DNA of 64,000 nt from Escherichia coli. GTDB taxonomy: Bacteria > Pseudomonadota > Gammaproteobacteria > Enterobacterales > Enterobacteriaceae. The notes beneath the pieces were generated by a model, which saw nothing but the letters and a program-made list of their open reading frames with translations, was not told the origin of the DNA and did no database searches. The first letter of the stretch is position 1, and each line of letters starts with the position of its first letter. The position numbers and the translations under genes are program-made. The stretch is taken from the NCBI RefSeq assembly GCF_041886205.1, contig NZ_CP169029.1; one strand, 5' to 3'. Positions 9,911 to 55,388 of this stretch are shown here, one piece after another.

Positions 9911-9955
9911 TCGAATCCACTGATCTGAAGTGTGAATACGCTTCAATCTCGCTAT

Positions 9956-11448: not shown

Positions 11449-11454
11449 GACAAT

Positions 11455-11685: not shown

Positions 11686-11810
11686 AACATATTTTGAGAA
11701 TATAAAACAACTGTTGGAATATATTATTTCATTGCTTTATTGATAACGATTTTCATTTGGATTTATATATCAATGAAACGTTAAAATAAATAACAAATAA
11801 GGGAAGAGGT

Positions 11811-11870
11811 AATATAGCCTAAGCTATGTCTGATTATTAAAAATACACTAAACATAGCTTTGGCTAAATT
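11811..11870. promoter_or_regulatory. two MntR-box-like palindromic half-site pairs upstream of the mntP promoter
   Basis: aaTATAGCctaaGCTATGTct and AAACATAGCtttgGCTAaat resemble the MntR operator remembered as AAACATAGC-N4-GCTATGTTT; not verified. Confidence 0.3.
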
Positions 11871-11876
11871 CATAAC

Positions 11877-12335: not shown

Positions 12336-12345
12336 TAATCCTCCA

Positions 12346-12376
12346 GATAAAAAAACGGGGCCAAAAGGCCCCGGTA
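12346..12376 (-). terminator. intrinsic terminator after manZ
   Basis: Minus strand cggggcc-tttt-ggccccg followed by ttttttt between manZ stop and yobD start. Confidence 0.5.
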
Positions 12377-12389
12377 GTGTACAACAGTC

Positions 12390-13250: not shown

Positions 13251-13253
13251 CTG

Positions 13254-14054: not shown

Positions 14055-14116
14055 TGTACTTCTCCTGTTTACGTAAGACTTAAGTGTGAAAACTGAGTGA
14101 TAATCAACACAATACG

Positions 14117-15088: not shown

Positions 15089-15550
15089 TTGCTACCTCCT
15101 TTATTATCGTTAACACCTCAACGTGCCAGATGTATTTTTGAATCGTCGTCCACAATCGAATCGATTCAGATAAGGGCTACAACCAAAAACCCCTGCGTTT
15201 CGCGATTTATTTTAGATATCGAAAAAATTATTTTATGTGATGAAGATCCGTAATTTAACTTTCGATTAGCAGAAATTTCGAAAGGTAAAATATCCTTATC
15301 ACATTCGTTTGCAAAGGAAGGTAAATCTTTGCCAAATCAGAGGCGTCTCTGATATGTTTAACTCCCGTTTAACAACCATGGAGTATAGGGCAGTAGCCCG
15401 CAGTATGGATCGTCACCGACGTCATTTCAGCATCAGGCCTTTTAACGCCTGCCTTTCTGGCATTCTATGCCGCACCTTTCGTTTGCATTTTGTCGTTACG
15501 CCTGCATTATTTTTGGCGTCGAATAGCTATTCCTTAAGCAGGAGCTTGTC

Positions 15551-17110: not shown

Positions 17111-18709
17111 TTAACGTAACGGCATAATGGGTGTGATATGTCCATTATGCCGGGCGGGCGGCGGTTGGCTGCCCGCCAGCCATTTAGGAAAATCACGTAG
17201 TGGCATCGGCTGTGCGTACAAATACCCTTGCAAAATATGGACGCCATGACGGCGCAAATATTTCGCCTGTTCTTGCGTTTCCACACCCTCCGCCACCAGT
17301 TCAATATTCAGTCTTTGCCCCAGTGCGATGATGATATCGGTCACCGTCGAGTTAACCGCGTCAGAACCTATAGCTGCGGTAAATGACTTATCAATTTTCA
17401 GCACGTCAGGACGTAATGTTTCAAGCCAGGAAAATGAACTGTTGCCGGTGCCGAAGTCATCAATCGCCAGTTTGACGTTTTTACGATGCAGCTCGCGGGC
17501 AATACGATAATCAACATCCAGTAAGGCATCGCGTTCGGTGATTTCGAGGATCAGTTGCTGAATCGGGTGAGCGCTAAACCAGTACTGATTGAGATCTTTT
17601 ATCAGCACACCACGGCGAAAATGGCTGGGTGCGACGTTAATGCCAACATGAAACTGACTACTCATTGGGAAAACATGGCGCTGACGAATGGTTTCTGCCA
17701 TCACATAGCGGGTCAGTGGCACAATTAAATGATGTTCTTCCGCGATAGGAATAAACACATCCGGTGAAATCCAGCCCTGACGCGGATTGTTCCAGCGCAG
17801 CAAAATCTCTACACCAATACATTGCTGGCTGCGCGCATTAAGCAAAGGCTGACAGAACAATTCGAACTCATGTTGCGCCAGGCCCAGATTGATTTCGCGG
17901 GAAAAGCTCATCCGGTAAGCGGTCGCCAGCCAGGCGATGTAGCCCACCAGTAAACTTAGCAGCACCGCCAGCGGTAATTGTGTTGGAAGATAGTGCCATG
18001 CCAGCGCCGTAGCCCCCGGACCATTAACGTTAATGGTAAAAGGAAAGCGTTGCGAAGAAACCTGATAGTTTTCATTGTCTTCAGGTTGCGGAAGGGAATC
18101 TACCAGCCCATTACCATAGAGCAAATGCCGTTTGTCCACCGTCAGGCTGGCGCTACTGATTTGCGGCAGTTGTGGCTCAAGGAGCATTGCCGTCAGTAAG
18201 TCGATGTTAATCATCTCCATGACCCCAGCATTGCTACTGCCCGCTGCAGGCGTCCATTGAATCAAAACCGGACTGCATTTAATCAGGGCACGGTCGATCG
18301 TCAGGCGTAAAAGTGGTTGCGGTGCAGGAAGTTCAGCCAGAATGTCCACGACGGGCACATTGCGATAACCAAAAATGCTGGAGCAATAAAGTGTGCCGTC
18401 TTGCACCAGGCCAATGGATCGCACAGTTTGGAGTTTTGCCGCCTGTTTACGTAATGGCAAATGGGCGACAGAGCAGGGCAGACCAATCAGCGGAAGCAAG
18501 ACTTCGCTACCTGCCTGTAGGGGAAGCAGTACTTTATCTAATTCCTCTACAGCGTGATTGGCGAATTGTACTACCCGTTGTTGATTTAAGTTACGCTGTG
18601 AAATAAATCGCACGCTCAGGGTCGAAGCGAGCGTAACGAGTGCGCAAATCGTACAAACAATCATTCGATTACGACGATAGGTTTTAATGATCCGTTGTGC
18701 TTTTTGCAT
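17111..18709 (-). CDS. pdeD: c-di-GMP phosphodiesterase PdeD (YoaD), CSS-EAL domain protein
   Basis: ORF track 17111..18739 (TTG); conserved start at MQKAQRIIKTY about 30 nt internal; EAL-family motif region GVEILLRW. Confidence 0.85.
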   Translation of the reverse strand: MQKAQRIIKTYRRNRMIVCTICALVTLASTLSVRFISQRNLNQQRVVQFANHAVEELDKVLLPLQAGSEVLLPLIGLPCSVAHLPLRKQAAKLQTVRSIGLVQDGTLYCSSIFGYRNVPVVDILAELPAPQPLLRLTIDRALIKCSPVLIQWTPAAGSSNAGVMEMINIDLLTAMLLEPQLPQISSASLTVDKRHLLYGNGLVDSLPQPEDNENYQVSSQRFPFTINVNGPGATALAWHYLPTQLPLAVLLSLLVGYIAWLATAYRMSFSREINLGLAQHEFELFCQPLLNARSQQCIGVEILLRWNNPRQGWISPDVFIPIAEEHHLIVPLTRYVMAETIRQRHVFPMSSQFHVGINVAPSHFRRGVLIKDLNQYWFSAHPIQQLILEITERDALLDVDYRIARELHRKNVKLAIDDFGTGNSSFSWLETLRPDVLKIDKSFTAAIGSDAVNSTVTDIIIALGQRLNIELVAEGVETQEQAKYLRRHGVHILQGYLYAQPMPLRDFPKWLAGSQPPPARHNGHITPIMPLR

Positions 18710-30619: not shown

Positions 30620-30964
30620 TTACACCGCAGCTACAATCTTAATTTCAACTTTATACTTCGGGTTCATCAAACCCGCTTGTACCGTGCAGCGCACTGGCGC
30701 ATGACCCGCGACAACCCAGGCATCCCACGCTTTATTCATCGCCGCGAAGTCGTTTTTATCGGCCAGGAAAATGGTGGCATCCAGAATGCTCGATTTATTG
30801 CTGCCCTGTTTTTCCAGCACAGCGTCAATCTGCGCCAGCGTGTTGGCGGTTTGCTCAAAGGCATCGGCGTCGAGGTTTTCCGGTACACCAGTGTAGTAGA
30901 GCGTGTTGTTGTGGATTACCACATCAGACCAGCGGGCTTCAGCATCGATACGAACGATAGTCAT
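30620..30964 (-). CDS. yoaB: RidA/YjgF-family protein YoaB
   Basis: ORF track 30620..31012; start moved to MTIVRIDAEARW giving 114 aa. Confidence 0.85.
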   Translation of the reverse strand: MTIVRIDAEARWSDVVIHNNTLYYTGVPENLDADAFEQTANTLAQIDAVLEKQGSNKSSILDATIFLADKNDFAAMNKAWDAWVVAGHAPVRCTVQAGLMNPKYKVEIKIVAAV

Positions 30965-31095
30965 CATTTTGTCCTCATTATACTTCCATTTTCGTGCTGC
31001 AAAGACTGCCACAATGTGAGGTCGCCGTCACCACTTCAACTGGCGAAAGCGCCCTCATCCTGACATAATCCCTGTTCGAATCAACAGGGGGTAGT

Positions 31096-33006
31096 GTGAC
31101 GGATGATTTTGCACCAGATGGTCAGCTGGCAAAAGCGATACCAGGCTTTAAGCCGCGAGAACCACAGCGACAGATGGCGGTAGCCGTCACCCAGGCGATA
31201 GAAAAAGGCCAGCCGCTGGTGGTGGAAGCAGGAACCGGTACGGGCAAAACCTACGCTTACCTGGCTCCTGCACTGCGGGCGAAAAAGAAAGTCATTATAT
31301 CGACCGGCTCAAAAGCGTTGCAGGATCAGCTCTACAGCCGCGATTTGCCAACAGTCTCAAAGGCATTGAAATATACGGGCAACGTGGCGCTGCTGAAAGG
31401 GCGCTCAAACTACCTCTGCCTCGAACGTCTCGAACAGCAGGCGCTGGCGGGGGGCGATCTGCCGGTACAAATATTAAGCGATGTGATCCTGCTGCGCTCC
31501 TGGTCTAATCAAACAGTCGATGGTGATATCAGCACCTGCGTCAGCGTGGCGGAAGATTCACAGGCGTGGCCGCTGGTCACCAGCACCAACGACAACTGTC
31601 TTGGCAGCGACTGCCCGATGTATAAAGATTGCTTTGTGGTCAAAGCACGCAAAAAAGCGATGGACGCCGATGTGGTGGTGGTGAACCATCATCTGTTTCT
31701 GGCGGATATGGTGGTGAAAGAGAGCGGTTTTGGCGAACTGATCCCGGAAGCGGAAGTCATGATCTTCGACGAAGCCCACCAGCTGCCCGACATTGCCAGC
31801 CAGTATTTCGGTCAGTCACTCTCCAGTCGACAACTGCTCGACCTGGCAAAAGACATCACCATCGCCTACCGCACCGAATTAAAAGACACCCAGCAGTTAC
31901 AAAAGTGCGCTGATCGTCTTGCCCAGAGTGCGCAGGATTTTCGTCTGCAACTCGGTGAGCCAGGTTATCGCGGTAACCTGCGTGAGCTGTTAGCTAATCC
32001 GCAAATTCAGCGGGCATTTTTACTGCTCGATGACACCCTGGAACTTTGTTATGACGTGGCGAAACTGTCACTGGGGCGTTCCGCCTTGCTGGATGCGGCA
32101 TTTGAGCGCGCTACGTTGTATCGCACACGGCTGAAGCGGCTAAAAGAGATCAATCAGCCGGGCTACAGCTACTGGTACGAATGCACTTCGCGCCATTTTA
32201 CTCTGGCTCTCACGCCGCTCAGCGTGGCGGATAAATTCAAAGAGTTAATGGCGCAAAAACCCGGTAGCTGGATCTTCACCTCAGCAACGCTGTCGGTGAA
32301 CGACGATCTGCATCATTTCACCTCGCGGCTTGGCATCGAACAGGCCGAGTCGTTGCTGTTGCCCAGCCCATTTGATTACAGCCGCCAGGCGTTACTCTGT
32401 GTGCCGCGCAATCTGCCGCAAACCAACCAGCCAGGTTCTGCTCGCCAGTTAGCGGCAATGCTGCGACCGATCATCGAAGCTAACAACGGTCGTTGTTTTA
32501 TGCTTTGTACCTCGCACGCCATGATGCGCGATCTGGCCGAGCAGTTCCGCGCTACCATGACGCTTCCTGTATTGTTGCAGGGGGAAACCAGCAAAGGGCA
32601 ACTGTTGCAGCAATTTGTCAGCGCCGGTAATGCGCTTCTTGTGGCAACCAGCAGTTTCTGGGAAGGGGTGGACGTGCGTGGCGATACATTGTCATTGGTA
32701 ATTATCGACAAATTGCCGTTTACCTCGCCGGATGATCCACTGTTAAAAGCGCGCATGGAAGATTGTCGTTTGCGCGGTGGCGACCCGTTCGATGAAGTGC
32801 AACTACCAGATGCCGTCATTACTCTCAAGCAGGGGGTAGGGCGACTGATTCGCGACGCCGACGATCGTGGCGTGTTAGTGATTTGCGACAATCGGCTGGT
32901 AATGCGCCCTTACGGCGCGACGTTTCTCGCCAGTCTGCCGCCCGCGCCACGCACCCGTGACATTGCCCGTGCGGTTCGTTTCCTTGCGATACCATCCTCC
33001 AGGTAA
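31096..33006 (+). CDS. yoaA: DinG-family ATP-dependent DNA helicase YoaA
   Basis: ORF track 636 aa; Walker A AGTGTGKT, DEAH box (DEAH at IFDEAHQL), Fe-S Cys cluster. Confidence 0.9.
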   Translation: MTDDFAPDGQLAKAIPGFKPREPQRQMAVAVTQAIEKGQPLVVEAGTGTGKTYAYLAPALRAKKKVIISTGSKALQDQLYSRDLPTVSKALKYTGNVALLKGRSNYLCLERLEQQALAGGDLPVQILSDVILLRSWSNQTVDGDISTCVSVAEDSQAWPLVTSTNDNCLGSDCPMYKDCFVVKARKKAMDADVVVVNHHLFLADMVVKESGFGELIPEAEVMIFDEAHQLPDIASQYFGQSLSSRQLLDLAKDITIAYRTELKDTQQLQKCADRLAQSAQDFRLQLGEPGYRGNLRELLANPQIQRAFLLLDDTLELCYDVAKLSLGRSALLDAAFERATLYRTRLKRLKEINQPGYSYWYECTSRHFTLALTPLSVADKFKELMAQKPGSWIFTSATLSVNDDLHHFTSRLGIEQAESLLLPSPFDYSRQALLCVPRNLPQTNQPGSARQLAAMLRPIIEANNGRCFMLCTSHAMMRDLAEQFRATMTLPVLLQGETSKGQLLQQFVSAGNALLVATSSFWEGVDVRGDTLSLVIIDKLPFTSPDDPLLKARMEDCRLRGGDPFDEVQLPDAVITLKQGVGRLIRDADDRGVLVICDNRLVMRPYGATFLASLPPAPRTRDIARAVRFLAIPSSR

Positions 33007-33063
33007 TTTGTTACGGAGTATGGTATGATGCGCGCCTTTTTATTGATCTAAGCACGAAGACCC

Positions 33064-33759
33064 ATGCGAATTCTGGCTATCGATACCGCGACAGAGGCCT
33101 GCTCTGTCGCCCTGTGGAACGACGGTACTGTCAACGCTCATTTTGAGCTTTGCCCTCGTGAACATACTCAACGAATCTTACCGATGGTGCAGAATATCCT
33201 GACCACCAGCGGAACTTCCCTGACTGACATAAACGCTCTGGCTTACGGGCGCGGCCCCGGTAGCTTTACTGGCGTGCGCATTGGTATTGGCATCGCGCAA
33301 GGGCTGGCGCTTGGCGCGGAATTACCGATGATTGGCATCTCCACGCTAATGACGATGGCGCAAGGGGCGTGGCGCAAAAACGGCGCAACACGCGTACTGT
33401 CAGCCATTGACGCGCGAATGGGCGAAGTTTACTGGGCCGAATATCAGCGTGATGAAAACGGTATCTGGCACGGTGAAGAAACCGAAGCCGTACTCAAACC
33501 CGAACTCGTTCATGAACGAATGCAACAGCTTTCCGGCGAATGGGTGACGGTAGGGACGGGCTGGCAAGCCTGGCCGGATCTCGGTAAAGAGAGCGAGCTG
33601 GTTTTGCGCGATGGCGAAGTGTTACTCCCCGCTGCAGAAGATATGCTGCCGATTGCTTGTCAGATGTTTGCCGAGGGTAAAACGGTGGCGGTGGAACATG
33701 CCGAACCGGTTTATTTACGTAACAACGTCGCATGGAAGAAACTTCCGGGCAAAGAATGA
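33064..33759 (+). CDS. tsaB: tRNA t6A37 threonylcarbamoyladenosine biosynthesis protein TsaB (YeaZ)
   Basis: ORF track 231 aa; [18 protein letters not shown]-terminus typical of TsaB. Confidence 0.9.
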
Positions 33760-33798
33760 ATCTTAAGAGTATGCCCTGAGAAAAAAAGGAGTCGCATC

Positions 33799-34380
33799 AT
33801 GGCGGTTCAAGAGAATGTTATCAAAGGCATACTGGCAGGTACGTTTGCGCTAATGCTGAGCGGTTGTGTCACTGTGCCGGACGCCATTAAAGGCAGCAGT
33901 CCCACGCCGCAACAAGATTTAGTTCGGGTGATGAGTGCGCCGCAGCTGTACGTTGGTCAGGAGGCACGCTTTGGTGGCAAAGTGGTTGCGGTACAAAACC
34001 AGCAAGGGAAAACCCGCCTGGAAATTGCTACCGTACCGCTGGACAGCGGAGCCAGACCGACGCTGGGAGAACCTTCTCGCGGTCGCATTTATGCCGATGT
34101 GAACGGTTTTCTGGACCCGGTGGATTTCCGTGGACAACTGGTTACGGTAGTCGGGCCAATCACTGGTGCGGTTGACGGCAAAATCGGCAATACGCCCTAT
34201 AAATTTATGGTGATGCAGGCAACAGGTTACAAACGTTGGCATTTAACCCAGCAGGTGATTATGCCGCCTCAGCCGATTGATCCATGGTTTTATGGCGGTC
34301 GTGGCTGGCCCTATGGCTACGGCGGATGGGGCTGGTATAATCCCGGCCCCGCGAGAGTACAAACAGTTGTAACTGAATAA
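33799..34380 (+). CDS. yeaY: Slp-family outer-membrane lipoprotein YeaY
   Basis: ORF track 193 aa; lipobox LSGC; Gly/Trp-rich C-terminus. Confidence 0.85.
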
Positions 34381-34401
34381 TTGCTTGTTTTTAAAGAAAA
34401 A

Positions 34402-34427
34402 GAAACAGCGGCTGGTCCGCTGTTTCT
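34402..34427 (+). terminator. terminator after yeaY
   Basis: gaaacagcgg-ctggtc-cgctgtttc hairpin. Confidence 0.45.
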
Positions 34428-34584
34428 GCATTCTTACGGTAAAGATAAAAATAAATAGTGACGCGCTTCGCAACCTTTTCGTTGGGTAATTATCAAGCTG
34501 GTATGATGAGTTAATATTATGTTAACGGCATGTATATCATTTGGGGTTGCGATGACGACGAACACGCATTTTAGAGGTGAAGAA

Positions 34585-36270
34585 TTGAAGAAGGTTTGGC
34601 TTAACCGTTATCCCGCGGACGTTCCGACGGAGATCAACCCTGACCGTTATCAATCTCTGGTAGATATGTTTGAGCAGTCGGTCGCGCGCTACGCCGATCA
34701 GCCTGCGTTTGTGAATATGGGGGAGGTGATGACCTTCCGCAAGCTGGAAGAACGCAGTCGCGCGTTTGCCGCTTATTTGCAACAAGGGTTGGGGCTGAAG
34801 AAAGGCGATCGCGTTGCGTTGATGATGCCTAATTTATTGCAATATCCGGTGGCGCTGTTTGGCATTTTGCGTGCCGGGATGATCGTCGTAAACGTTAACC
34901 CGTTGTATACCCCGCGTGAGCTTGAGCATCAGCTTAACGATAGCGGCGCATCGGCGATTGTTATCGTGTCTAACTTTGCTCACACACTGGAAAAAGTGGT
35001 TGATAAAACCGCCGTTCAGCACGTAATTCTGACCCGTATGGGCGATCAGCTATCTACGGCAAAAGGCACGGTAGTCAATTTCGTAGTTAAATACATCAAG
35101 CGTCTGGTGCCGAAATACCATCTGCCAGATGCCATTTCATTTCGTAGCGCCCTGCATAACGGCTACCGGATGCAGTACGTCAAACCCGAACTGGTGCCGG
35201 AAGATTTAGCTTTCCTGCAATACACCGGCGGCACCACTGGTGTGGCGAAAGGCGCGATGCTGACTCACCGCAATATGCTGGCGAACCTGGAACAGGTTAA
35301 CGCGACTTATGGTCCGCTGTTGCATCCGGGCAAAGAGCTGGTGGTGACGGCGCTGCCGCTGTATCACATTTTTGCCCTGACCATTAACTGCCTGCTGTTT
35401 ATCGAACTGGGTGGGCAGAACCTGCTTATCACTAACCCGCGCGATATTCCAGGGTTGGTAAAAGAGTTAGCGAAATATCCGTTTACCGCTATCACTGGCG
35501 TTAACACCTTGTTCAATGCGTTGCTGAACAATAAAGAGTTCCAGCAGCTGGATTTCTCCAGTCTGCATCTTTCCGCAGGCGGTGGGATGCCAGTGCAGCA
35601 AGTGGTGGCAGAGCGTTGGGTGAAACTGACAGGACAGTATCTGCTGGAAGGTTATGGCCTGACCGAGTGTGCGCCGCTGGTTAGCGTTAACCCGTATGAT
35701 ATTGATTATCATAGTGGTAGCATCGGTTTGCCGGTGCCGTCGACGGAAGCCAAACTGGTGGATGACGACGATAATGAAGTACCACCGGGTCAACCGGGTG
35801 AGCTTTGTGTCAAAGGACCGCAGGTGATGCTGGGTTACTGGCAGCGTCCGGATGCTACCGATGAGATCATCAAAAATGGCTGGTTACACACCGGCGACAT
35901 CGCGGTGATGGATGAAGAAGGGTTCCTGCGCATTGTCGATCGTAAAAAAGACATGATTCTGGTTTCCGGTTTTAACGTCTATCCCAACGAGATTGAAGAT
36001 GTCGTCATGCAGCATCCTGGCGTACAGGAAGTCGCGGCTGTTGGCGTACCTTCCGGCTCCAGTGGTGAAGCGGTAAAAATCTTTGTAGTGAAAAAAGATC
36101 CATCGCTTACCGAAGAGTCACTGGTGACTTTTTGCCGCCGTCAGCTCACGGGCTACAAAGTACCGAAGCTGGTGGAGTTTCGTGATGAGTTACCGAAATC
36201 TAACGTCGGAAAAATTTTGCGACGAGAATTACGTGACGAAGCGCGCGGCAAAGTGGACAATAAAGCCTGA
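34585..36270 (+). CDS. fadD: long-chain fatty acid-CoA ligase FadD
   Basis: ORF track 34519..36270; conserved N-terminus (M)[13 protein letters not shown] begins at an in-frame TTG preceded by GAGGTGA SD; AMP-binding motif [12 protein letters not shown]. Confidence 0.9.
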
Positions 36271-36288
36271 GCGTTAAGTCAGTCGTCA

Positions 36289-36315
36289 GACGCCGGTTAA
36301 TCCGGCGTTTTTTTT
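36289..36315 (+). terminator. fadD terminator / hairpin preceding the rnd start
   Basis: gccggttaatccggc hairpin followed by tttttttt, about 25 nt upstream of rnd start codon. Confidence 0.5.
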
Positions 36316-44928: not shown

Positions 44929-45075
44929 TTATCACTGATCGTTGATGGCGCAATTTCTGCGCCATCGCAAAAAAATCCTCCGTGATGCTCGTCACAAATC
45001 TTGCCCTCCCGATGTTGTGCTATGCTTTTTATCAGCGACTAACCCGCTAATGCAAAACAGATAAGTGAGGAAACA

Positions 45076-45324
45076 ATGGGCATTCTGTCATGGATTATTT
45101 TTGGGCTTATTGCCGGTATTCTGGCGAAGTGGATCATGCCAGGTAAAGATGGTGGTGGATTCTTTATGACTATCCTGCTGGGGATAGTCGGTGCTGTAGT
45201 CGGCGGATGGATCAGCACGCTGTTTGGCTTTGGTAAAGTCGATGGCTTCAATTTTGGCAGCTTCGTGGTTGCCGTTATTGGTGCGATTGTCGTGCTATTT
45301 ATCTACAGGAAGATTAAAAGTTAA
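45076..45324 (+). CDS. yeaQ: GlsB/YeaQ/YmgE-family small membrane protein
   Basis: ORF track 82 aa; two TM, Gly-rich. Confidence 0.85.
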   Translation: MGILSWIIFGLIAGILAKWIMPGKDGGGFFMTILLGIVGAVVGGWISTLFGFGKVDGFNFGSFVVAVIGAIVVLFIYRKIKS

Positions 45325-45339
45325 CGCGTAAATTGCACA

Positions 45340-45370
45340 AAGGCTGCACACAGGCAGCCTTTGCTATTTT
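45340..45370 (+). terminator. intrinsic terminator after yeaQ
   Basis: caaaggctgc-acacag-gcagcctttg hairpin followed by ctatttttt. Confidence 0.5.
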
Positions 45371-45382
45371 TTAGAGGTGACG

Positions 45383-45457
45383 TTACCACCATCCCAGCTC
45401 AGTGCCGAGTACGACAATAATCGCCACACCCATCATAATAATCGTTGTTTTTTTCAT
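45383..45457 (-). CDS. yoaJ: small membrane protein YoaJ (24 aa)
   Basis: Hand-translated MKKTTIIMMGVAIIVVLGTELGWW; below ORF-track cutoff; coordinates approximate. Confidence 0.55.
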   Translation of the reverse strand: MKKTTIIMMGVAIIVVLGTELGWW

Positions 45458-45459
45458 CT

Positions 45460-45558
45460 TTATGCTCCCGGGGCAGCATAGCCGCCAATAAAAAACCATG
45501 CTAAAAATACGACCGCTGTAATGAAGATTACAACCGGAAAAATAATACCGATTCGCAT
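45460..45558 (-). CDS. yoaK: small membrane protein YoaK (32 aa)
   Basis: Hand-translated MRIGIIFPVVIFITAVVFLAWFFIGGYAAPGA; adjacent to yoaJ; coordinates approximate. Confidence 0.55.
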   Translation of the reverse strand: MRIGIIFPVVIFITAVVFLAWFFIGGYAAPGA

Positions 45559-45590
45559 GTTATCACCAATCAAAAGGATGTGAATACGCC

Positions 45591-46616
45591 TCAGGAATGT
45601 AGCGCTGGATGCGCGACAAAAGGTGTTTTCTGTTTGTGTTTTTTCTCCTGATACATCGCAATATCGACAGCATGCAGGGCACTGTCTGCATCGGTTGTTT
45701 CAGGATCGACTTCTACTATGCCAAGACTGGCACCGGGATAATACAAATCAACATCACCTAAGTGATATTCTCCACGTATTTGCTGTTGAATACGTTCTCG
45801 CAGCGACGAAATATCCGCATTCTCGTTGTTTAGTGAAACAACCAAAAACTCATCACCACCGAGACGACCAATAACTTCGCCATTTTGCTGGAGCGTATTA
45901 AGGCGCTCGCCAACCTGAATGAGAAACAGATCGCCACTATTATGACCAAAACGATCATTGATTAATTTGAAGTTATCCAGATCGATAAACGCGATCATTA
46001 TCTTATGGTTAAGATGCCGGGCGAGGGAAAACAGCGTCGTCAGATTTTCAAAAATCGCCCGCCGATTCGGTAGCCCGGTTAACGAGTCGGTATACGATTG
46101 CGCAATCAGCGCAGCATTGGCTTCGCGCAGCTGTTCAACCAGTGCCTCTTTTTGAATATATTGTGCAATCAGTCCGGCGAATAACTGTAAAACCTGTTCC
46201 GCGCGTTCACTCCACTGGCGCTTCTCACTGCTGGCGGCGCAAAGCGTGCCATAGAATGATCCATCCGGTAAGTGAATTGGCGTGCTCAGAAATGTGGTGA
46301 TGCCAAGATTGCGTGCCGCAATACAGTCGCCCCAACGGTCAGGGACTTCATCGCTGAAAAAGCAGTTTTCATCAATGGCGCGTTTGCATAACGAGTAATC
46401 CCACGAGACGGTAAAATTCTCCGGGATGTGCATTTTCTGGCTGTTACGGGCAAACATAATATGCTGCAGGCGCGCTTCGACATCCACTTTGGTCAGGTAG
46501 GTTGATTCCATATCAGTGACCATTTCCAGCATCTCCAGAAGCTGTCGGACCAGACTTTCCAGTGACTGTTCTTTGGCAAGGGATTGCGAGACGCGGGCGA
46601 TAATCTGATCTGACAC
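45591..46616 (-). CDS. dgcP: diguanylate cyclase DgcP (YeaP), GAF-GGDEF
   Basis: ORF track 45591..46745; GTG start at (M)SDQIIARV giving 341 aa; GGDEF motif RLGGDEFLVV. Confidence 0.85.
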   Translation of the reverse strand: MSDQIIARVSQSLAKEQSLESLVRQLLEMLEMVTDMESTYLTKVDVEARLQHIMFARNSQKMHIPENFTVSWDYSLCKRAIDENCFFSDEVPDRWGDCIAARNLGITTFLSTPIHLPDGSFYGTLCAASSEKRQWSERAEQVLQLFAGLIAQYIQKEALVEQLREANAALIAQSYTDSLTGLPNRRAIFENLTTLFSLARHLNHKIMIAFIDLDNFKLINDRFGHNSGDLFLIQVGERLNTLQQNGEVIGRLGGDEFLVVSLNNENADISSLRERIQQQIRGEYHLGDVDLYYPGASLGIVEVDPETTDADSALHAVDIAMYQEKKHKQKTPFVAHPALHS

Positions 46617-46798
46617 GGAACAACTCCAGGATACGGCGGGTAAGTGCTGATTATTTAATCTTTGCAGGCATGATAAAACATCATCAACAAAGATGAAACA
46701 AGACGTAATATGTTTTGAGTGAATGTAATAAAAATAGTGCTGCAAAACAAAACGATACCGCGATACTCTAAGCTTGGATAAATATGTGAGATCAATAA

Positions 46799-47053
46799 AT
46801 GAAAATTATCAGTTTTGTTCTGCCTTGCTTGCTGGTCCTGGCTGGTTGTTCAACCCCTTCTCAGCCAGAAGCACCTAAACCGCCGCAGATTGGTATGGCA
46901 AATCCGGCGTCGGTCTATTGCCAGCAGAAGGGCGGGACGCTCATTCCAGTGTCGACAGCGCAAGGGGTCAGCAACAATTGCAAATTACCGGGCGGTGAAA
47001 CGATTGATGAATGGGCATTGTGGCGACGGGACCATCCGGCTGGTGAAAAATAA
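46799..47053 (+). CDS. yoaF: DUF333 lipoprotein YoaF
   Basis: ORF track 84 aa; lipobox LAGC. Confidence 0.8.
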   Translation: MKIISFVLPCLLVLAGCSTPSQPEAPKPPQIGMANPASVYCQQKGGTLIPVSTAQGVSNNCKLPGGETIDEWALWRRDHPAGEK

Positions 47054-47074
47054 CCGCCGGATGCTGTACTAAAA

Positions 47075-47422
47075 TCACAAGCTACGTAGCCAGTCGGCCA
47101 GCACCAGCGCATGGTTCTGCGTGGTGTTTTTTGCTGCGTAGAGCAGGGTCAGCGGCTGTTTTTTGGCGATGTCCGCCAGCCGCTTTCCTTCTTGCTCGTG
47201 TTGCGCCAGTTCTGCAAGATATTGCTCGCGAAAGGTTGCAAAATCGACGACTTCGCCGTGAAAGGCTTTGCGCAGTTCCGTTGACGGCGTGATTTCTTTA
47301 TCCCACTCATCAAGGGCTAAATCGGTTTTTTTGATACCGCGCGGCCAGAGGCGGTCGACCAGTACGCGATAACCATCGCTCTGTTCAGCCGGATCATAAA
47401 CGCGTTTGCACTGAATATTCAT
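47075..47422 (-). CDS. yeaO: DUF488 protein YeaO
   Basis: ORF track 47075..47443; start moved to MNIQCKRVYDPA giving 115 aa. Confidence 0.8.
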   Translation of the reverse strand: MNIQCKRVYDPAEQSDGYRVLVDRLWPRGIKKTDLALDEWDKEITPSTELRKAFHGEVVDFATFREQYLAELAQHEQEGKRLADIAKKQPLTLLYAAKNTTQNHALVLADWLRSL

Positions 47423-47476
47423 CGTGTTTGTTCTCCCTTTCACGCATGATTTGTCACGTCACTATAGCACCGGATA

Positions 47477-48658
47477 TTAGCGAATTTCTTTGTCTCTCCC
47501 GGCGCAAAGTCCGAAAATCGCCATCAGTAGTGAAAGTATTGCAACACCCATCAGTGGTACGGACCAGTTACCGTTAGCATCGTGTATTTTACCCATTAGC
47601 GGCGGCCCACAGGCTGCCAGCAAATACCCGACGGATTGTGCCATCCCCGAGAGTGCCGCCGCCTGATGCGCAGAACTTGCCCGAAGACCAATGAACGTCA
47701 ACCCCAGTATCATTGTTGCGCCGGAACCAAAACCGAAAAGCAGAGTCCAGGTGATCGCGTGCGCTGGCATAAAGCAGAGCCCAACAGCGCCCACTGCGCA
47801 CATCAAGGCAACGAACGCTGCAATACCACGCTGATCTTTCACATGATGTAAGAAAAGTGGGATCAGCAAACCGGGTGCTGCTGTGGCTAGTTGCAGCAAA
47901 CCATGCAGTGAACCCGCCTGTGCTTCGCTATAGCCGTGACTGATGAGGATCGCCGGAAGCCAGCCAATAATCACGTAATAGACCAGTGAGTTGATCCCAA
48001 GAAACAATGTGACCTGCCAGGCAAGCGGCGAACGCCAGATACCCCGAGTATGTAAGGCGCGCGAGGTACTCAAATTTGCATGTTGTTGACTTCGCCACTG
48101 TGGCAGCCATAAAAAAAGAGCCAGCAGAGGAAAACACATCAGCATGAGCAACGCGCCTTGCCAGCCAAAACCGTTCAAAGCCAGCGGCACGACCATAGCC
48201 GATCCCAGTGCCGCTGCAGCTCCCATTGTCAGGGAATATGCGCCGGTAAGTCTGGCGACGGAATGAGGGAAATCGCGTTTAATTAATCCTGGCAGTAAGA
48301 CATTGCCTAATGCAATCCCACCGCCAATGACCGCTGTACCGCCAAATAATAAGTAAGGCGAAGGGAGAGAGCGAATTGCGATACCTGCACAGATCAAAAG
48401 TAACGCGGCAAACAGGCTACGTTCCATACCAAAACGTCGCGCCACCGGGGCAGCCAAAGGTGAGATTAGCGCAAAGGCCAATAATGGCAGGGTGGTCAAT
48501 AAGCCGGTTTGCGCTGTCGTCAGCGAGTAAGCGGAACGAATCGTATCCAGTAACGGCGCTGCGCCGGTAAAGGTGACGCGTAATGTTGTGGCAATCATCA
48601 GAATGCCAGCGATAAGGACAATCCTGTTTTTGCCGCTTAATGAAGTTGAACAGGTCAT
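47477..48658 (-). CDS. yeaN: MFS transporter YeaN (cyanate-transporter-like)
   Basis: ORF track 393 aa; 12-TM MFS profile. Confidence 0.85.
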   Translation of the reverse strand: MTCSTSLSGKNRIVLIAGILMIATTLRVTFTGAAPLLDTIRSAYSLTTAQTGLLTTLPLLAFALISPLAAPVARRFGMERSLFAALLLICAGIAIRSLPSPYLLFGGTAVIGGGIALGNVLLPGLIKRDFPHSVARLTGAYSLTMGAAAALGSAMVVPLALNGFGWQGALLMLMCFPLLALFLWLPQWRSQQHANLSTSRALHTRGIWRSPLAWQVTLFLGINSLVYYVIIGWLPAILISHGYSEAQAGSLHGLLQLATAAPGLLIPLFLHHVKDQRGIAAFVALMCAVGAVGLCFMPAHAITWTLLFGFGSGATMILGLTFIGLRASSAHQAAALSGMAQSVGYLLAACGPPLMGKIHDANGNWSVPLMGVAILSLLMAIFGLCAGRDKEIR

Positions 48659-48754
48659 ATGCTTCTCATTGTTACAAACGAGGCTGTACCTTACCGTTTT
48701 TATAGTTATGTTGAATCAAGCTAAAATGACAAATTATCGCTAAATTCGGACAAA

Positions 48755-49576
48755 ATGATGCACAGGTTGAATCTCAATGGCTATGAACCCGACCGACACC
48801 ATGAAGCCGCGGTCGCATTTTGTATTCACGCCGGAACGGATGAGTTAACCAGTCCTGTAGATCAGCACCGCAAAGGACAGCTGATACTGGCATTACATGG
48901 TGCAATTACCTGTACGGTGGAAAATGCTTTGTGGATGGTGCCGCCACAATATGCGGTTTGGATACCGGGCGGGGTGGAACATAGCAATCAAGTGACAGCT
49001 AACGCTGAACTCTGTTTTCTGTTTATCGAACCCAGCGCAGTGACAATGCCGACAACCTGTTGCACATTGAAAATATCGCCCTTATGCCGGGAATTAATTT
49101 TAACTCTGGCAAACAGGACGACGACTCAGCGTGCTGAGCCGATGACCCGCAGATTAATTCATGTCCTGTTTGATGAACTCCCTCAGCAGCCACAACAACA
49201 GCTGCACCTACCCGTTTCTTCTCATCCTAAAATCCGCGCGATGGTGGAGATGATGGCGAAAGAGCCCGTCGAGTGGGGGTCATTGGGGCAATGGGCTGGC
49301 TTTTTTGCGATGAGTGAACGCAATCTTGCCCGACTGATAGTAAAAGAGACGGGGTTGAGTTTTCGCCAGTGGCGACAGCAGTTACAGCTGATTATGGCGC
49401 TTCAGGGATTAGTGAAAGGCGATACTGTACAGAAAGTTGCTCATACGCTGGGGTATGATTCAACAACGGCCTTTATTACTATGTTTAAGAAAGGCCTGGG
49501 GCAAACGCCAGGCCGATATATTGCGGGATTAACTACTGTTTCCCCACAATCAGCGAAACCAGACCCGCGGCAATAA
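48755..49576 (+). CDS. yeaM: AraC-family transcriptional regulator YeaM
   Basis: ORF track 273 aa; cupin-like N-domain and C-terminal AraC HTH. Confidence 0.85.
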
Positions 49577-49979
49577 GCGGGCCAACCGGTACGCCGCGAA
49601 ACAGCGCTACGCCTAAAACAGTGCCCACCAGCAGCCCAGCAACCAGTTGCGGCTGGCTGCCCATTAACGTCACGCCGCGCCCACCCAGCCAGGAGACAAT
49701 AACGCCTACTGCAATTGCCACCAGCGATTTCCAGTTCAGAAACGAGTGAATCAAGGTTGAGGGCGGTAGCGTCCCGCTGGCGATGGGGGCCATAACGCCA
49801 ATCGTCAGAATGATTATCCCGATACTTAGCCCCTGTTTTTCAATCCACGGGAAAAAGGTGCTTAACGGTGTGACGCGGACAATGATCAACACCAGAATTG
49901 AAACGGCGACAGTGGTGTTATGACTGATAAAGCCCAGCGCAGCTAACCCGAGCAGGATCAGCAAAGTGACATCAAACAT
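49533..49979 (-). CDS. yeaL: UPF0756 membrane protein YeaL
   Basis: ORF track 148 aa; hydrophobic; 3' end overlaps yeaM 3' end by about 44 nt (convergent). Confidence 0.8.
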
Positions 49980-50148
49980 CGTGGTTTCCTTGCCAAAAAA
50001 TAATAAGCCTGCTTACTTTACGCTTGCTGCAGGAAGGAAGTAGAAAATCTTTACGTTTTTTGCATAAAAAATCAGGCGAACTGTCATCAAACTGCCATTT
50101 GTGCACGCTAACAATAACGTGAAAACAGCTATCTCCCGGGGGCATGCT

Positions 50149-50253
50149 ATGAACGATCAAATGTTCGTCGAGACACTGATTATCACGTCATCGTTTTTTG
50201 CCATTGCTGTTGTGCTGGTTTTGTCCGTTCTGCTTATTGAACGGACAGGCTAG
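50149..50253 (+). CDS. yoaI: small membrane protein YoaI (34 aa)
   Basis: Hand-translated [34 protein letters not shown]; below ORF-track cutoff; coordinates approximate. Confidence 0.55.
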
Positions 50254-50757
50254 TTACGCAGTGCGGCGGAAATTGACCAGTTCTGGTTGCGCAATGCGCA
50301 AATAATCCGCGGTTTTCAAAATAACGGATTTATCCAGCATACCTGCATTGAAGGCGATTTCATCAAATCGTTCGAAGAGTAGAGGGTCGGCAACCAGTTT
50401 GAGTTTTGGATGGAAGCTGAAAGGGGGGATCGCGCCGAAGACACAGCCTGTGAGTTCATCGACTTCCGCCGGGCTGGCCAACGAAGCGCGTAATCCGCCT
50501 ATATGGCTGGCGAGTTGGCTCAGATCGGCCTGTTGATCGGCTGCGAGGATCGCCAGAACATGTTGATTTACGCCATTGCCTTTGACTTTACATACCAGTG
50601 CCTTAGCTCCCTGGCCTAAAGCGGTGCCACGAATTTCTGACACCGCTTCACATTTACCTACCGCTTCATGGGTAACGACGCGGAAGTTAGCACCTTCTTG
50701 TGATAATAAAGCGATTAACCGCTGATGCGTCACGCTTCCTTTAGCCATTTCAGTCAT
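50254..50757 (-). CDS. yeaK: YbaK/ProX-family aminoacyl-tRNA deacylase YeaK
   Basis: ORF track 167 aa. Confidence 0.85.
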   Translation of the reverse strand: MTEMAKGSVTHQRLIALLSQEGANFRVVTHEAVGKCEAVSEIRGTALGQGAKALVCKVKGNGVNQHVLAILAADQQADLSQLASHIGGLRASLASPAEVDELTGCVFGAIPPFSFHPKLKLVADPLLFERFDEIAFNAGMLDKSVILKTADYLRIAQPELVNFRRTA

Positions 50758-50799
50758 TTCACGCTCCTGAGATTACAAGCAAACAACCACAGAAGGTTA

Positions 50800-52290
50800 T
50801 CATGAACGGCTGTTTTTGTTCTGCTTATTGACATATAAACGCTCATCGGAAGCTTTATACGCATCATGTAACGTATCGTTTTCTTTCATCGCGTAAATAC
50901 CGGAAGAGAAGCCAATCTCTTTCTGCGGCGCGATATGTTGCAGACGTTTTTCGATACGTTCAGGCAGTTGTGCTGCAATTTGCGGCGTCGAATCGACAAG
51001 AATGATGCAGAATTCATCGCCACCGAGTCGGATGGCATAATCACTTTTACGAATCGATTGTTTAATCGCCTGAGCTAATAACGTAATCGCTAAATCCCCC
51101 TCCTGATGACCGAGGGTGTCATTTATTTGCTTTAACTTGTCCATGTCAATTGCAATAAACATCACCGAAGAACCGGCTTGCACCAGTTTCTGCAACCGCT
51201 GCTCCAGTTCAGGGGTTAAAATTTTGCGATTATACAGTCCAGTCATCGCATCACTAATATTTTCTCGCGACACATTTTGGTATAAACGGAAGTGCATCCG
51301 CACCATATTCAGCAAAATTAACGCCGTCAAAATCCAGAACAGAACGCTTTTCCACGAAGACGTGATAAAGTAAAGAATATCAATGGATAACGAGACACGA
51401 ATGCCGCCCGGTAAGTCATGGACGTAACTGACATACTGGAACAGATTATCTTCGCTCTGGTTGATGATAATGTCGCGCCCCGAATCGGTATCGGTTAGCG
51501 TGACATTGAGAAAACGCCAGAGGAGAGGGCGGTCATGAGTGTAAAAGATATTCCGCAAATTGTTTTTGTTAATATCCAGCAGCACAATCCCTTTTAGCTG
51601 CCCTGCGACATATACCGGCGTCAGCAAACTCATCACGTTCTGTTTAGTACGCTGATCCTGGTAAATGCTCGACAATACGGTACGCCCGGTAAATACCTTT
51701 TCAATATCTTTGCGATCGATGCCAATACTTCCTGACTGCAGGAAGGACCAGTTATTCATCGCAAAGTATTCAACATTAACCGGCTCATAAAAATAGACAT
51801 AGCGGTCATTGAGATCGAGATAATAGTGAAATTTCTCTTCGGCCATCCCAAGACCTGAACCGTAATCATCCTGGTGGCGGTTGCCTTCCACTGCCTGATC
51901 AAAAGCGGGTAATAGTGCTGCAGCTTCCACAATTGTGTCGCAGTCAGTGGATGCGGTTTGTAGTGTGCCGCGTAAGCCCGGGTATTTATGGGCAGTCAGG
52001 TTTAAGCCATGGGTATTATTGGCAGACTCAAAAGCCTCGCAGATGGCGCGCCGCTGTTCTGGCGACACTTCCGACTGCTCAGCAGCGAGAGCGCGCATCA
52101 CATGCGCGGCAATACTCTGATTCTGATACTTATCATAAAGAAAGGAGGAGTCTGCTTTCTGCACGATATAGCGCAGATAGGCACTCATTGCTCTGTCGCT
52201 GGCGACAAGTTCAAAAATAAGGAAGGAAGATGTCAGCACAATGACACTTGCGGCGATAAAATGCCGGAGCATTCTATGGTGCAATTTCAT
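50800..52290 (-). CDS. dgcJ: diguanylate cyclase DgcJ (YeaJ), membrane sensor-GGDEF
   Basis: ORF track 50800..52470; start moved to MKLHHRMLRHF giving 496 aa; GGDEF motif RLGGDEFCII. Confidence 0.85.
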   Translation of the reverse strand: MKLHHRMLRHFIAASVIVLTSSFLIFELVASDRAMSAYLRYIVQKADSSFLYDKYQNQSIAAHVMRALAAEQSEVSPEQRRAICEAFESANNTHGLNLTAHKYPGLRGTLQTASTDCDTIVEAAALLPAFDQAVEGNRHQDDYGSGLGMAEEKFHYYLDLNDRYVYFYEPVNVEYFAMNNWSFLQSGSIGIDRKDIEKVFTGRTVLSSIYQDQRTKQNVMSLLTPVYVAGQLKGIVLLDINKNNLRNIFYTHDRPLLWRFLNVTLTDTDSGRDIIINQSEDNLFQYVSYVHDLPGGIRVSLSIDILYFITSSWKSVLFWILTALILLNMVRMHFRLYQNVSRENISDAMTGLYNRKILTPELEQRLQKLVQAGSSVMFIAIDMDKLKQINDTLGHQEGDLAITLLAQAIKQSIRKSDYAIRLGGDEFCIILVDSTPQIAAQLPERIEKRLQHIAPQKEIGFSSGIYAMKENDTLHDAYKASDERLYVNKQNKNSRS

Positions 52291-52470
52291 GATAAATGGC
52301 ACTCCTTCGGTTAGTGAAACGAGAAAACCAGATAAAGTTCGATTGCGGCCTGGCACAGGGGCGCTAATTATACTCATCTCTGCGCCGCTGGGGAGGGGAA
52401 ATTTAGGGGTAATAGTAATAAATTGTATGCAAAAGCCACGCAAAAAGCATGGCTCTGAATATTTTTGCAC

Positions 52471-53946
52471 TTAAATATGATGAATAATCACTTTGTTGCC
52501 CCCCTCGCTTTTCGCTTCGCGTAAGGCTTTATCTGCTTCCGTCATGACAAGCGAGATATTACGCGTGTCACCCGTTGAAAAAACCGTGCCAATACTGATG
52601 GTCATTTGTTCAGGAACATCATATCTGTTACTAAAGCCGGTCAGGAGTTCGACATTTTTACGCATACGTTCCGCAATGATTTTTGCCTGGGCACTATTGA
52701 GTTCGGTAAATAGCAAGCCAAACACCTCACCCTCCAGTCGCGCTAAAATATCATCGGGGCGGATGCTTTGCTGGATAATATCGACAATTGAAACCAGCAC
52801 TTTATCACCCACACGATGTCCCCATTGGGCATTGATGCGTTTGAACTGATTAATATCAACCAGCATGACACAGAAGTCCTTAACAACAGGTCGCGACAAT
52901 AATGACTCTACGCTGTTGAAAAAGTAGCGCCGATTATAAATATTGGTCAGCACATCATGAACTGCCAGTTTGCTGGAGAGTTGCAGTTCCTGAAAAATGT
53001 TATAAATCAGAAAAGACACAACAAACAGTTTACTGGAGACTTCAATCCCGCGACTGATGTACCAGATGGTGTAATTATACTCATCCAGAGTCAGTAGAAG
53101 TAAGTTGCAGCATAGCGATGCCAGACATAATAATGCTATTAATGGCCATAGTTCGCTGGCTAATCGTGTACGCATGATAATAAAGAACAGTAAAAATGCC
53201 CACAGACAAACCAATATTTTTGTATAGTTGATTCCCCAGGTCGCAGTATGGTTGTCAGGACAGTAGTCGACGACATACAAAGAATAGTCAGCGTTATAAC
53301 TGCTCAGATTGTGTGCCAGAAGGGGAAAAACTAAAAAAGGAATCAGCGCCAGCAACAGGATTCCCGTTTTTTTCTTATTGTTGTCAAGGATGTTGTCTTT
53401 TCCATAACAAAAGAGTGCCAGCGAGGTTAAACAAATAAAACTGAGTTGGCGGAAAATATAGAAAATAGAAACATCATTCGACTTTGTCTGGATCAGTGTA
53501 CTGCCGTTAATTGGTTTATGGATAATTACAATGGTTTCAACTAAATAGATAAGGCCACTTAAAAATGCAAGGCTTAAAATGAGTGTTGGTAAAATTTGTT
53601 TGTTAGTGAAATATTTCATTAACATGAAAAGAAAAATGACGGCGTTAAGGAAAAACAAAGCCACAACAACTATCAGGTAATTCATCTGTGGGATGAGTTT
53701 TACATTTGTGTTTTCGTTATATAAGGTAGTAATGCAAAATAAAATTAACGTCAGCAATAAACTGAAAATAAAAAAGCTTTGAGCTTTTAATTTTTGTGTA
53801 CCCATAGAAACCATAAAAAGGAGAGCAATGTGAGTGCTGGATTTTATTGATGGCAGAGATATATAGTTTTGACCAAGATCAATTTTCGTTAACGATAAAA
53901 AATATTTAAAGAATAACCCCATGGAAATACGTGTTGACTGAATCAT
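52471..53946 (-). CDS. cdgI: CdgI (YeaI), membrane protein with degenerate GGDEF domain
   Basis: ORF track 491 aa; multi-TM N-domain; GGDEF position reads RLEGEVFGLL (degenerate); strongly AT-rich gene. Confidence 0.85.
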   Translation of the reverse strand: MIQSTRISMGLFFKYFLSLTKIDLGQNYISLPSIKSSTHIALLFMVSMGTQKLKAQSFFIFSLLLTLILFCITTLYNENTNVKLIPQMNYLIVVVALFFLNAVIFLFMLMKYFTNKQILPTLILSLAFLSGLIYLVETIVIIHKPINGSTLIQTKSNDVSIFYIFRQLSFICLTSLALFCYGKDNILDNNKKKTGILLLALIPFLVFPLLAHNLSSYNADYSLYVVDYCPDNHTATWGINYTKILVCLWAFLLFFIIMRTRLASELWPLIALLCLASLCCNLLLLTLDEYNYTIWYISRGIEVSSKLFVVSFLIYNIFQELQLSSKLAVHDVLTNIYNRRYFFNSVESLLSRPVVKDFCVMLVDINQFKRINAQWGHRVGDKVLVSIVDIIQQSIRPDDILARLEGEVFGLLFTELNSAQAKIIAERMRKNVELLTGFSNRYDVPEQMTISIGTVFSTGDTRNISLVMTEADKALREAKSEGGNKVIIHHI

Positions 53947-54059
53947 TTTTCCGAATGATTGTTTTCTGGAACTAAATTATGTAAAGGTTATGCTGTCATA
54001 TTTAAAGCGATTGTAAGCTAATGTATGTAATAAATGAGATAATTTACAGTAAGCTAAAA

Positions 54060-54088
54060 ATCAGCCAGGCGATAATGACCTGGCTGAT
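54060..54088 (-). terminator. intrinsic terminator after yeaH
   Basis: atcagccagg-tcattatcg-cctggctgat hairpin followed by T-run on minus strand. Confidence 0.45.
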
Positions 54089-54092
54089 AGTT

Positions 54093-55388
<1,296 letters not shown>

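Follow-up and report, generated by a model that had tools for sequence, protein, structure and literature searches.

Three genes for GGDEF-domain proteins, dgcP, dgcJ and cdgI, lie within 8.4 kb of each other in the E. coli DNA analyzed here (a stretch of 64 kb, hereafter the window), and a gene for an EAL-domain protein, pdeD, lies further off, which raises the question of whether their density marks a point of shared c-di-GMP control or has some other origin. The initial annotation favored the former, describing the region as a local hub of second-messenger control.

Layout of the locus

The RefSeq annotation of an identical stretch confirmed the identities and coordinates first given for the four genes and places all of them on the minus strand, with the trio spanning 45591–53946, from the stop codon of dgcP at the low end to the annotated start of cdgI at the high end. 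Between dgcJ and dgcP there are yoaI, nimR and yoaF, all three on the opposite strand, together with several unrelated genes. A terminator-like hairpin directly after yeaH (54060–54088, minus strand; 11 pairs followed by a T run) sets the yeaGH operon apart from cdgI. The fourth gene, pdeD, does have a separate location as initially described; however, the distance of 30 kb then given does not hold, the gap from dgcP being 26.9 kb in the window and 19.7 kb in K-12. The longer gap is due to a 7.47-kb insert at 23084–30554, a Yfc-like fimbrial operon of ~7.5 kb sited between the GGDEF trio and pdeD, and the segment bearing it is common to only 7 of 5426 complete genomes. The window is from an E. 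coli strain other than K-12 (DNA identity ~99.2%), and the initial description of these as known K-12 genes is thus correct for the orthologs but not for the window itself; each of the four proteins has at least 99% identity to its K-12 counterpart. Six-frame HMM and phmmer searches over the full 64 kb identified no further GGDEF or EAL sequence, and an Rfam search of the window matched the cspA thermoregulator and sroD but no c-di-GMP riboswitch.

Domains and motifs of the four proteins

The dgcP gene (yeaP; 45591–46616, minus strand) encodes a cytoplasmic GAF-GGDEF diguanylate cyclase of 341 residues with a GTG start, which had Pfam matches to GAF_2 (1.8e-10) and GGDEF (2.3e-40; 138 bits for PF00990, against a gathering cutoff of 23.8) and no hydrophobic segment. 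Residues 244–257 (QNGEVIGRLGGDEF; 45846–45887, minus strand) hold an intact A-site, the Arg-preceded GG(D/E)EF motif occurring as GRLGGDEF (residues 251–257), and lack an RxxD I-site at the canonical -5 position, QNGE standing in its place five residues before the A-site. The conserved D-x-D...K..ND...GH..GD substrate/metal-binding residues are present in both DgcP (IDLDNFKLINDRFGHNSGD) and DgcJ (IDMDKLKQINDTLGHQEGD), and for both proteins the residues agree with the KNDHDR-GGDEF inventory in Table 1 of PMC3484386. A longer dgcP ORF of 384 residues with a TTG start at 46745 was rejected in favor of the annotated start at 46616, as the GAF match begins inside the annotated protein. K-12 DgcP (YeaP, b1794) is the same at 339 of 341 residues and likewise joins GAF to GGDEF, has RLGGDEF and lacks an I-site; the substitutions in the window are Y63H and A317V, the latter adjoining a conserved Asp near the C-terminal phosphate-binding helix. 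A slow rise of c-di-GMP is reported for Shigella DgcP (PMC11327459). With activity and regulation taken from the literature, DgcP would be a soluble GAF-GGDEF cyclase that has no feedback I-site and is made during growth.

The dgcJ gene (yeaJ; 50800–52290, minus strand) encodes a membrane diguanylate cyclase of 496 residues, with matches to the GAPES1 sensor domain (7.8e-151) and GGDEF (5.9e-40; 137 bits for PF00990, cutoff 23.8) and with two hydrophobic segments flanking the periplasmic domain. Both sites are intact in residues 414–427 (RKSDYAIRLGGDEF; 51010–51051, minus strand), where an RKSD I-site is followed by an IRLGGDEF A-site. The K-12 protein (YeaJ, b1786) differs at a single residue (S372A; 495/496 the same) and shares the GAPES1-TM-GGDEF architecture, the RKSD I-site, the RLGGDEF A-site and the place of its gene between cdgI and yeaK. 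DgcJ was reported to bind and specifically activate NfrB, acting locally, and c-di-GMP-dependent NfrB activity requires DgcJ (PMC8669469); NfrB itself is encoded outside the window. Based on these published findings for its activity and partner, DgcJ would be an inner-membrane cyclase with a periplasmic GAPES1 sensor, supplying local c-di-GMP to the glycosyltransferase NfrB, whose exopolysaccharide would, according to the literature, be the phage N4 receptor.

The cdgI gene (yeaI; 52471–53946, minus strand) encodes a MASE4 membrane protein annotated at 491 residues, with matches to MASE4 (1.6e-48) and GGDEF (9.1e-45) of which the latter scored 153 bits for PF00990 (cutoff 23.8). The GGDEF domain is degenerate: residues 396–409 (RPDDILARLEGEVF; 52720–52761, minus strand) have an intact RPDD I-site followed by RLEGEVF, an A-site (EGEVF) altered from G to E and from E to V. 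E. albertii (EGDVF) and E. fergusonii (EGEVF) share this degeneracy. The closest CdgI paralog tested, the MASE4 protein DgcT (38% identity over 85% of the length; encoded ~0.78 Mb away in K-12), retains GGEEF. The alignment of CdgI with DgcT showed further changes, namely INA for IND, ALREAK for ALYEAK and GGN for GRN. CdgI does not have an intact GG(D/E)EF A-site together with the substrate/phosphate-binding residues, and due to the degeneracy of both we did not file it as an active cyclase; it would be a membrane protein of the MASE4 type whose GGDEF domain has lost its catalytic activity. In published work CdgI was found to bind c-di-GMP and to have a non-catalytic role (PMC5635695). K-12 CdgI (YeaI, b1785) is the same at 489 of 491 residues, with MASE4, EGEVF and RPDD likewise, the substitutions being P24L and M92I. 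E. albertii and E. fergusonii do not conserve the region of the annotated start codon; Met45 (53814) or Met48 (53805) is the probable conserved start, and P24L would lie in an N-terminal part of the annotated protein that is likely to be untranslated.

The product of pdeD (yoaD; 17111–18709, minus strand) is a CSS-domain EAL c-di-GMP phosphodiesterase of 532 residues, with matches to the CSS-motif (1.6e-41) and EAL (2.8e-58) domains. Its EAL catalytic core (17216–17815, minus strand) comprises EIL-R at residues 301–305 (E301), N358, ExxE at 389–392, DDFGTG at 417–422, K438, EGVE at 474–477 and QG at 494–495; all the catalytic motifs checked were retained (in the forms EIL, LEITER, DDFGTG, KIDKS, EGVE and QG), in agreement with the listing of yoaD as EILR / QRDD / TE / ENEEDKEQ in Table 1 of PMC3484386, and the protein aligned across the whole EAL core of its structural relative PA3825-EAL (E = 7e-56). 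Two hydrophobic segments (residues ~15–38 and ~241–266) enclose a periplasmic loop with C79 and C109 (YCSS), an order of TM1, CSS loop, TM2 and complete EAL domain that PdeD shares with CSS-domain phosphodiesterases such as the model protein PdeC. The two conserved redox-switch cysteines are present in these phosphodiesterases, PdeD included, and redox/DsbA-dependent control was shown for PdeC and PdeB but only inferred for PdeD (PMC5897775). By analogy to PdeC, a disulfide switch in the periplasm presumably controls the activity of PdeD, and according to the literature its expression is under RpoS. K-12 PdeD (YoaD, b1815) is the same at 531 of 532 residues; the one difference, G145C, gives the window protein a third periplasmic cysteine, an allele present on 171 public contigs.

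The domain annotation and residue comparisons therefore uphold the initial description of the four proteins, namely GAF_2, GAPES1 or MASE4 joined to GGDEF in the trio, an intact RLGGDEF in DgcP and DgcJ, a degenerate GGDEF in CdgI, and a CSS-EAL phosphodiesterase in PdeD, all of which agrees with published tables (Spurbeck 2012, PMC3484386, Table 1). The genes, their motifs and names, and much of their biology have already been published, and their exact alleles are common in databases (each on 171 to at least 1000 public contigs). The PDB holds structures of homologous domains and none of DgcP, DgcJ, CdgI or PdeD themselves. Sequence, domains, motifs, orthology and phyletic pattern are results of the present analysis; enzymatic activities, partners and regulation are taken from the literature.

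Clustering and its origin

Using literature counts for K-12 (29 GGDEF/EAL genes and 19 GGDEF genes), we estimated the chance of finding any three within 7.1 kb as P = 0.024 for GGDEF/EAL genes under uniform placement and P = 0.007 for GGDEF genes, rising to P = 0.09 for the 29 genes under a conservative model that confines them to half the chromosome; for any four of the 29 within the observed span, P was 0.017–0.033. The clustering is real, yet in this post hoc test it exceeds chance by only a small margin. Such a cluster could come from local tandem duplication, with the copies of a single ancestral GGDEF gene later diverging and the density being a remnant of this, and three GGDEF genes on one strand within 8.4 kb are what it would leave. 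However, the GGDEF domains of DgcP, DgcJ and CdgI are just 28–31% identical in pairwise comparisons, and each aligns with PDB entries for GGDEF domains from unrelated bacteria about equally well. The N-terminal sensor domains are unrelated, belonging to different Pfam families (MASE4, GAPES1 and GAF), the three genes appear at different phylogenetic depths, and CdgI is closer to the distantly encoded DgcT than to its neighbor DgcJ (~29% identity, in the GGDEF domain alone). Based on the pairwise GGDEF comparison and the closer CdgI-DgcT match we rejected this origin, which we regard as very unlikely.

A shared control of the whole group also finds little in the layout of the locus or in the expression of its genes. 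The opposite-strand genes between dgcJ and dgcP rule out a single operon for the trio, and the cluster as a whole is not arranged for co-transcription, with opposite-strand and unrelated genes inside it, pdeD 27 kb off and a terminator after yeaH. Its members fall into different expression classes, DgcP being vegetative, PdeD RpoS-controlled, and CdgI undetectable and CsrA-repressed (PMC5635695). [quoted passage not shown]

The phyletic distribution of the trio, which we followed in six genomes (E. coli, E. albertii, E. fergusonii, Citrobacter, Salmonella and K. oxytoca), is uneven. All three genes are present in the three Escherichia species; Citrobacter has dgcJ and dgcP without cdgI; and Salmonella and K. 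oxytoca have dgcJ alone of the trio, in the same yeaH...yoaF position. Thus dgcJ occurs in 6/6 genomes, dgcP in Escherichia and Citrobacter, and cdgI in Escherichia only, and across these genomes the trio is not inherited as a unit. In Shigella flexneri cdgI is absent and dgcJ truncated, with dgcP intact (PMC11327459). This distribution suggests that dgcJ is old at this position, that gain or loss of dgcP took place at the Escherichia/Citrobacter level, and that cdgI is confined to Escherichia. We consider it highly probable that these are four separate, characterized c-di-GMP genes whose proximity is a by-product of genes being added and lost, step by step, within a variable segment downstream of yeaGH; they would be near each other because of stepwise gene gain rather than as a control hub, and their proximity would have no functional meaning. 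The claim of a local hub is therefore not sustained, given the unrelated sensors, the opposite-strand genes, the different expression classes, the independent gain and loss (in Shigella as well as across genera) and the local action of DgcJ on NfrB, a protein encoded elsewhere. As these are four well-studied genes that probably became neighbors through stepwise gain, the finding is an ordinary one, with the useful negative that a signaling hub should not be deduced from GGDEF/EAL proximity here.

The cdgI-dgcJ pair

The one point of biology left at this locus is a possible action of CdgI on its neighbor DgcJ. The trio, or at least cdgI-dgcJ, might be a local module in which CdgI senses c-di-GMP through its I-site and tunes or restrains the neighboring cyclase by GGDEF-GGDEF heterodimerization; if so, genomic proximity would reflect functional coupling after all. 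Several observations are consistent with this. The cdgI gene is directly upstream of dgcJ on the same strand, and as the spacer between them has no strong terminator-like site, co-transcription of the pair is possible; their adjacency is kept in E. coli, E. albertii and E. fergusonii with a spacing of 180–183 nt. The degenerate A-site and intact I-site of CdgI are maintained in these same species, which implies selection for a non-catalytic role, and, besides binding c-di-GMP, CdgI is described as making strong heteromeric contacts through its GGDEF domain with several other GGDEF domains, the partners, which may include DgcJ or DgcP, being unnamed in the text of that report (PMC5635695). The clustering itself (P = 0.007–0.024) points in the same direction. 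Against this, DgcJ functions in Salmonella, Citrobacter and Klebsiella, which have no CdgI; in K-12, CdgI cannot be detected under conditions that show DgcJ-dependent N4 infection; and dgcJ has its own start and Shine-Dalgarno sequence (AAGGAG, 8 nt ahead of the ATG at 52290). Moreover, the literature we found on these genes does not mention DgcJ as a partner of CdgI, and opposite-strand and unrelated genes part both dgcP and pdeD from the pair. On balance we consider such a module unlikely, and stepwise gain and loss remains our preferred explanation of the locus. The more specific proposal that CdgI is a cis-encoded, c-di-GMP-sensing modulator of DgcJ, the pair forming a feedback module specific to Escherichia that arose by insertion upstream of an ancestral cyclase, we hold to be quite improbable; if true, cdgI would be linked to the control of the NfrB/phage N4 receptor pathway.

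The spacer between the two genes (180 nt; 52291–52470, minus strand) is open in the dgcJ frame and in frame with cdgI, and its translation is the same in K-12. The resulting 556-residue ORF, which is in frame with cdgI and directly adjoins its stop codon, might suggest a longer DgcJ or a CdgI-DgcJ read-through product; we judged it to be due to chance, as we estimate p ~0.06 for ~60 stop-free codons and the annotated ATG has a good Shine-Dalgarno sequence ahead of it.

Gene content and active sites

RefSeq annotation, for the GGDEF genes that of an identical stretch, places dgcP (yeaP) at 45591-46616, dgcJ (yeaJ) at 50800-52290, cdgI (yeaI) at 52471-53946 and pdeD (yoaD) at 17111-18709, all on the minus strand. 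Pfam identified GAF and GGDEF domains in DgcP, GAPES1 and GGDEF in DgcJ, MASE4 and GGDEF in CdgI, and CSS-motif and EAL in PdeD, so both the coordinates and the domains claimed for a GGDEF/EAL cluster plus a distant pdeD were borne out. A six-frame sweep of the whole 64 kb revealed no GGDEF or EAL sequence beyond these four genes, and an Rfam search of the window found no c-di-GMP riboswitch. DgcP, DgcJ, CdgI and PdeD differ from MG1655 by 2, 1, 2 and 1 residues, and their exact alleles were counted on 936, at least 1000, at least 1000 and 171 contigs in public databases, respectively.

DgcP carries IDLDNFKLINDRFGHNSGD and GRLGGDEF, with QNGE at the position of the RxxD I-site, and DgcJ carries IDMDKLKQINDTLGHQEGD and RKSD-x5-GGDEF. 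CdgI has RPDD-x5-EGEVF and, relative to its paralog DgcT, INA for IND and ALREAK..GGN for ALYEAK..GRN. The alignment of PdeD with PA3825-EAL, for which a structure is solved, spans the entire EAL core (E = 7e-56), and PdeD retains EIL-R, N, ExxE, DDFGTG, K, EGVE and QG. The inventory published for yeaP, yeaJ, yeaI and yoaD (PMC3484386 Table 1) is exactly that seen in the window proteins, and because of this match the initial annotation was correct in describing RLGGDEF as intact in DgcP and DgcJ and CdgI as degenerate. PdeD is one of five CSS-domain phosphodiesterases; in their model member, PdeC, a disulfide switch in the periplasm exerts control (PMC5897775). Relative to K-12, PdeD has a G145C change (codon 18275-18277), the allele of the 171 contigs, which puts a third cysteine beside C79 and C109 in its periplasmic CSS redox-sensor loop.

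Origin of the GGDEF genes and degeneracy of CdgI

The GGDEF domains of the three clustered proteins share only 28-31% pairwise identity (50-60 bits), and each matches PDB GGDEF domains of unrelated bacteria about equally well; comparison of their N-terminal parts detected no similarity. CdgI is closer to the MASE4 cyclase DgcT (38% identity over 85% of its length), encoded ~0.78 Mb away in K-12, than to its neighbor DgcJ (~29%, confined to the GGDEF domain). Local duplication as their source is therefore excluded. Synteny along the conserved yeaG-yeaH...yeaK-yeaL...yeaO-yoaF backbone shows that the locus was assembled stepwise: cdgI, dgcJ and dgcP occur together in E. coli, E. albertii and E. 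fergusonii, one Citrobacter contig has dgcJ and dgcP without cdgI, and Salmonella and Klebsiella oxytoca have dgcJ only. In Shigella flexneri dgcP is intact, dgcJ truncated and cdgI absent (PMC11327459).

In the E. fergusonii locus (10001-16009, versus window 45591-52290), DgcJ (67% identity to E. coli), YeaK (87%), YeaO (75%) and DgcP (72%) diverge as far as the Citrobacter/Salmonella proteins, against 97-100% for the flanking YeaG, YeaH and YeaL and 90-97% for the corresponding E. albertii proteins, a pattern that points to replacement by recombination or to rapid evolution here. In E. albertii (9098-9196, versus window 47477-49576) no nimR-nimT pair separates yeaL from yeaO, and the three GGDEF genes consequently span only ~6.2 kb; in E. 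fergusonii nimT is present and nimR was not called.

The degenerate A-site recurs in CdgI orthologs, as EGDVF in E. albertii and EGEVF in E. fergusonii, with RPDD intact in both, so CdgI lost catalysis long ago and has been kept since. This agrees with the report that CdgI binds c-di-GMP (PMC5635695). In K-12 the protein is below detection, CsrA-repressed and toxic on overproduction, and it makes contact with several GGDEF domains, left unnamed in the text of that paper. E. albertii and E. fergusonii do not conserve the annotated cdgI start (ATG at 53946, giving 491 aa), and frame-breaking indels between species fall within its first 44 codons; Met45 (53814), Met48 (53805) and all downstream sequence are conserved across the Escherichia species compared, and the orthologs are called at 444-448 aa. 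The protein actually made in E. coli probably has 444-447 aa.

Gene order, regulation and the hub proposal

A strong terminator-like hairpin (54088-54060) lies directly 3' of yeaH, the cdgI-dgcJ interval contains no comparable site, and an AAGGAG Shine-Dalgarno precedes the dgcJ ATG. Seven genes, yeaK, yoaI (+), yeaL, nimR (+), nimT, yeaO and yoaF (+), separate dgcJ from dgcP, and the three GGDEF genes cannot form one operon. Over 52291-52473, the dgcJ frame is open across the entire 180-nt spacer and in frame with cdgI, the two ORFs being parted by a single stop codon, as in K-12; this and the rare fused or extended database forms (P0100, MASE4+GAPES1+GGDEF, 532 aa; P0065, 560 aa) are probably chance or deletion artefacts.

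DgcP expression is vegetative, and the stationary-phase induction of PdeD is under RpoS (PMC5635695). Infection by phage N4 requires a single cyclase, DgcJ, which binds NfrB, a glycosyltransferase dependent on c-di-GMP (PMC8669469). [quoted passage not shown] With those hubs elsewhere, no single operon, and genes gained stepwise and separately regulated, the local hub proposed from gene density was not supported, and the locus has accreted genes that evolve and are regulated independently of one another. All four are already characterized; the sole reading with some novelty, functional coupling of CdgI with the adjoining DgcJ, seems very improbable.

The published K-12 tally is 29 GGDEF/EAL genes and 19 GGDEF domains (PMC5635695). 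In a post hoc Monte Carlo test that treated the chromosome as a 4.64-Mb circle, any 3 of the 29 fell within 7.1 kb with P = 0.024, 3 of the 19 GGDEF genes with P = 0.007, and four genes in the observed span with P = 0.017-0.033. With the genes effectively restricted to half of the chromosome, P was 0.09-0.11. The clustering is real, yet marginal.

Strain background of the segment

The window is an E. coli chromosomal segment reversed relative to MG1655 1.86-1.92 Mb. Among 5426 complete E. coli genomes, 5424 contain its stretch 45000-54500, several at 100% identity. BLAST against MG1655 gave two collinear blocks (~99.2% identity) broken at 23084-30554; the description as known K-12 genes thus holds for the gene calls and fails for the window itself, which is not K-12. 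At 23084-30554, a 7.47-kb insert takes the place of 272 bp of the yoaB-yoaC spacer of K-12. It carries a seven-gene chaperone-usher fimbrial operon, including a StfH/YfcO-family adhesin, that looks like a second, Yfc-like operon. At least 80% of 24000-36000 is covered in only 7 of the 5426 genomes; ~13 genomes carry a copy of the insert at ≥90% identity, and most others match it only at 60-90%, matches we take to be the yfc locus. Because the insert falls between the GGDEF genes and pdeD, the dgcP-pdeD gap is 26.9 kb, versus 19.7 kb in K-12. Rfam matches above the gathering score, listed for 9525-9985 and 36229-36314, were to a cspA-type thermoregulator 5' UTR (+ strand, 132.9 bits), in the region of a cspC/cspE-like cold-shock gene, and to the sRNA SroD (115.2 bits).
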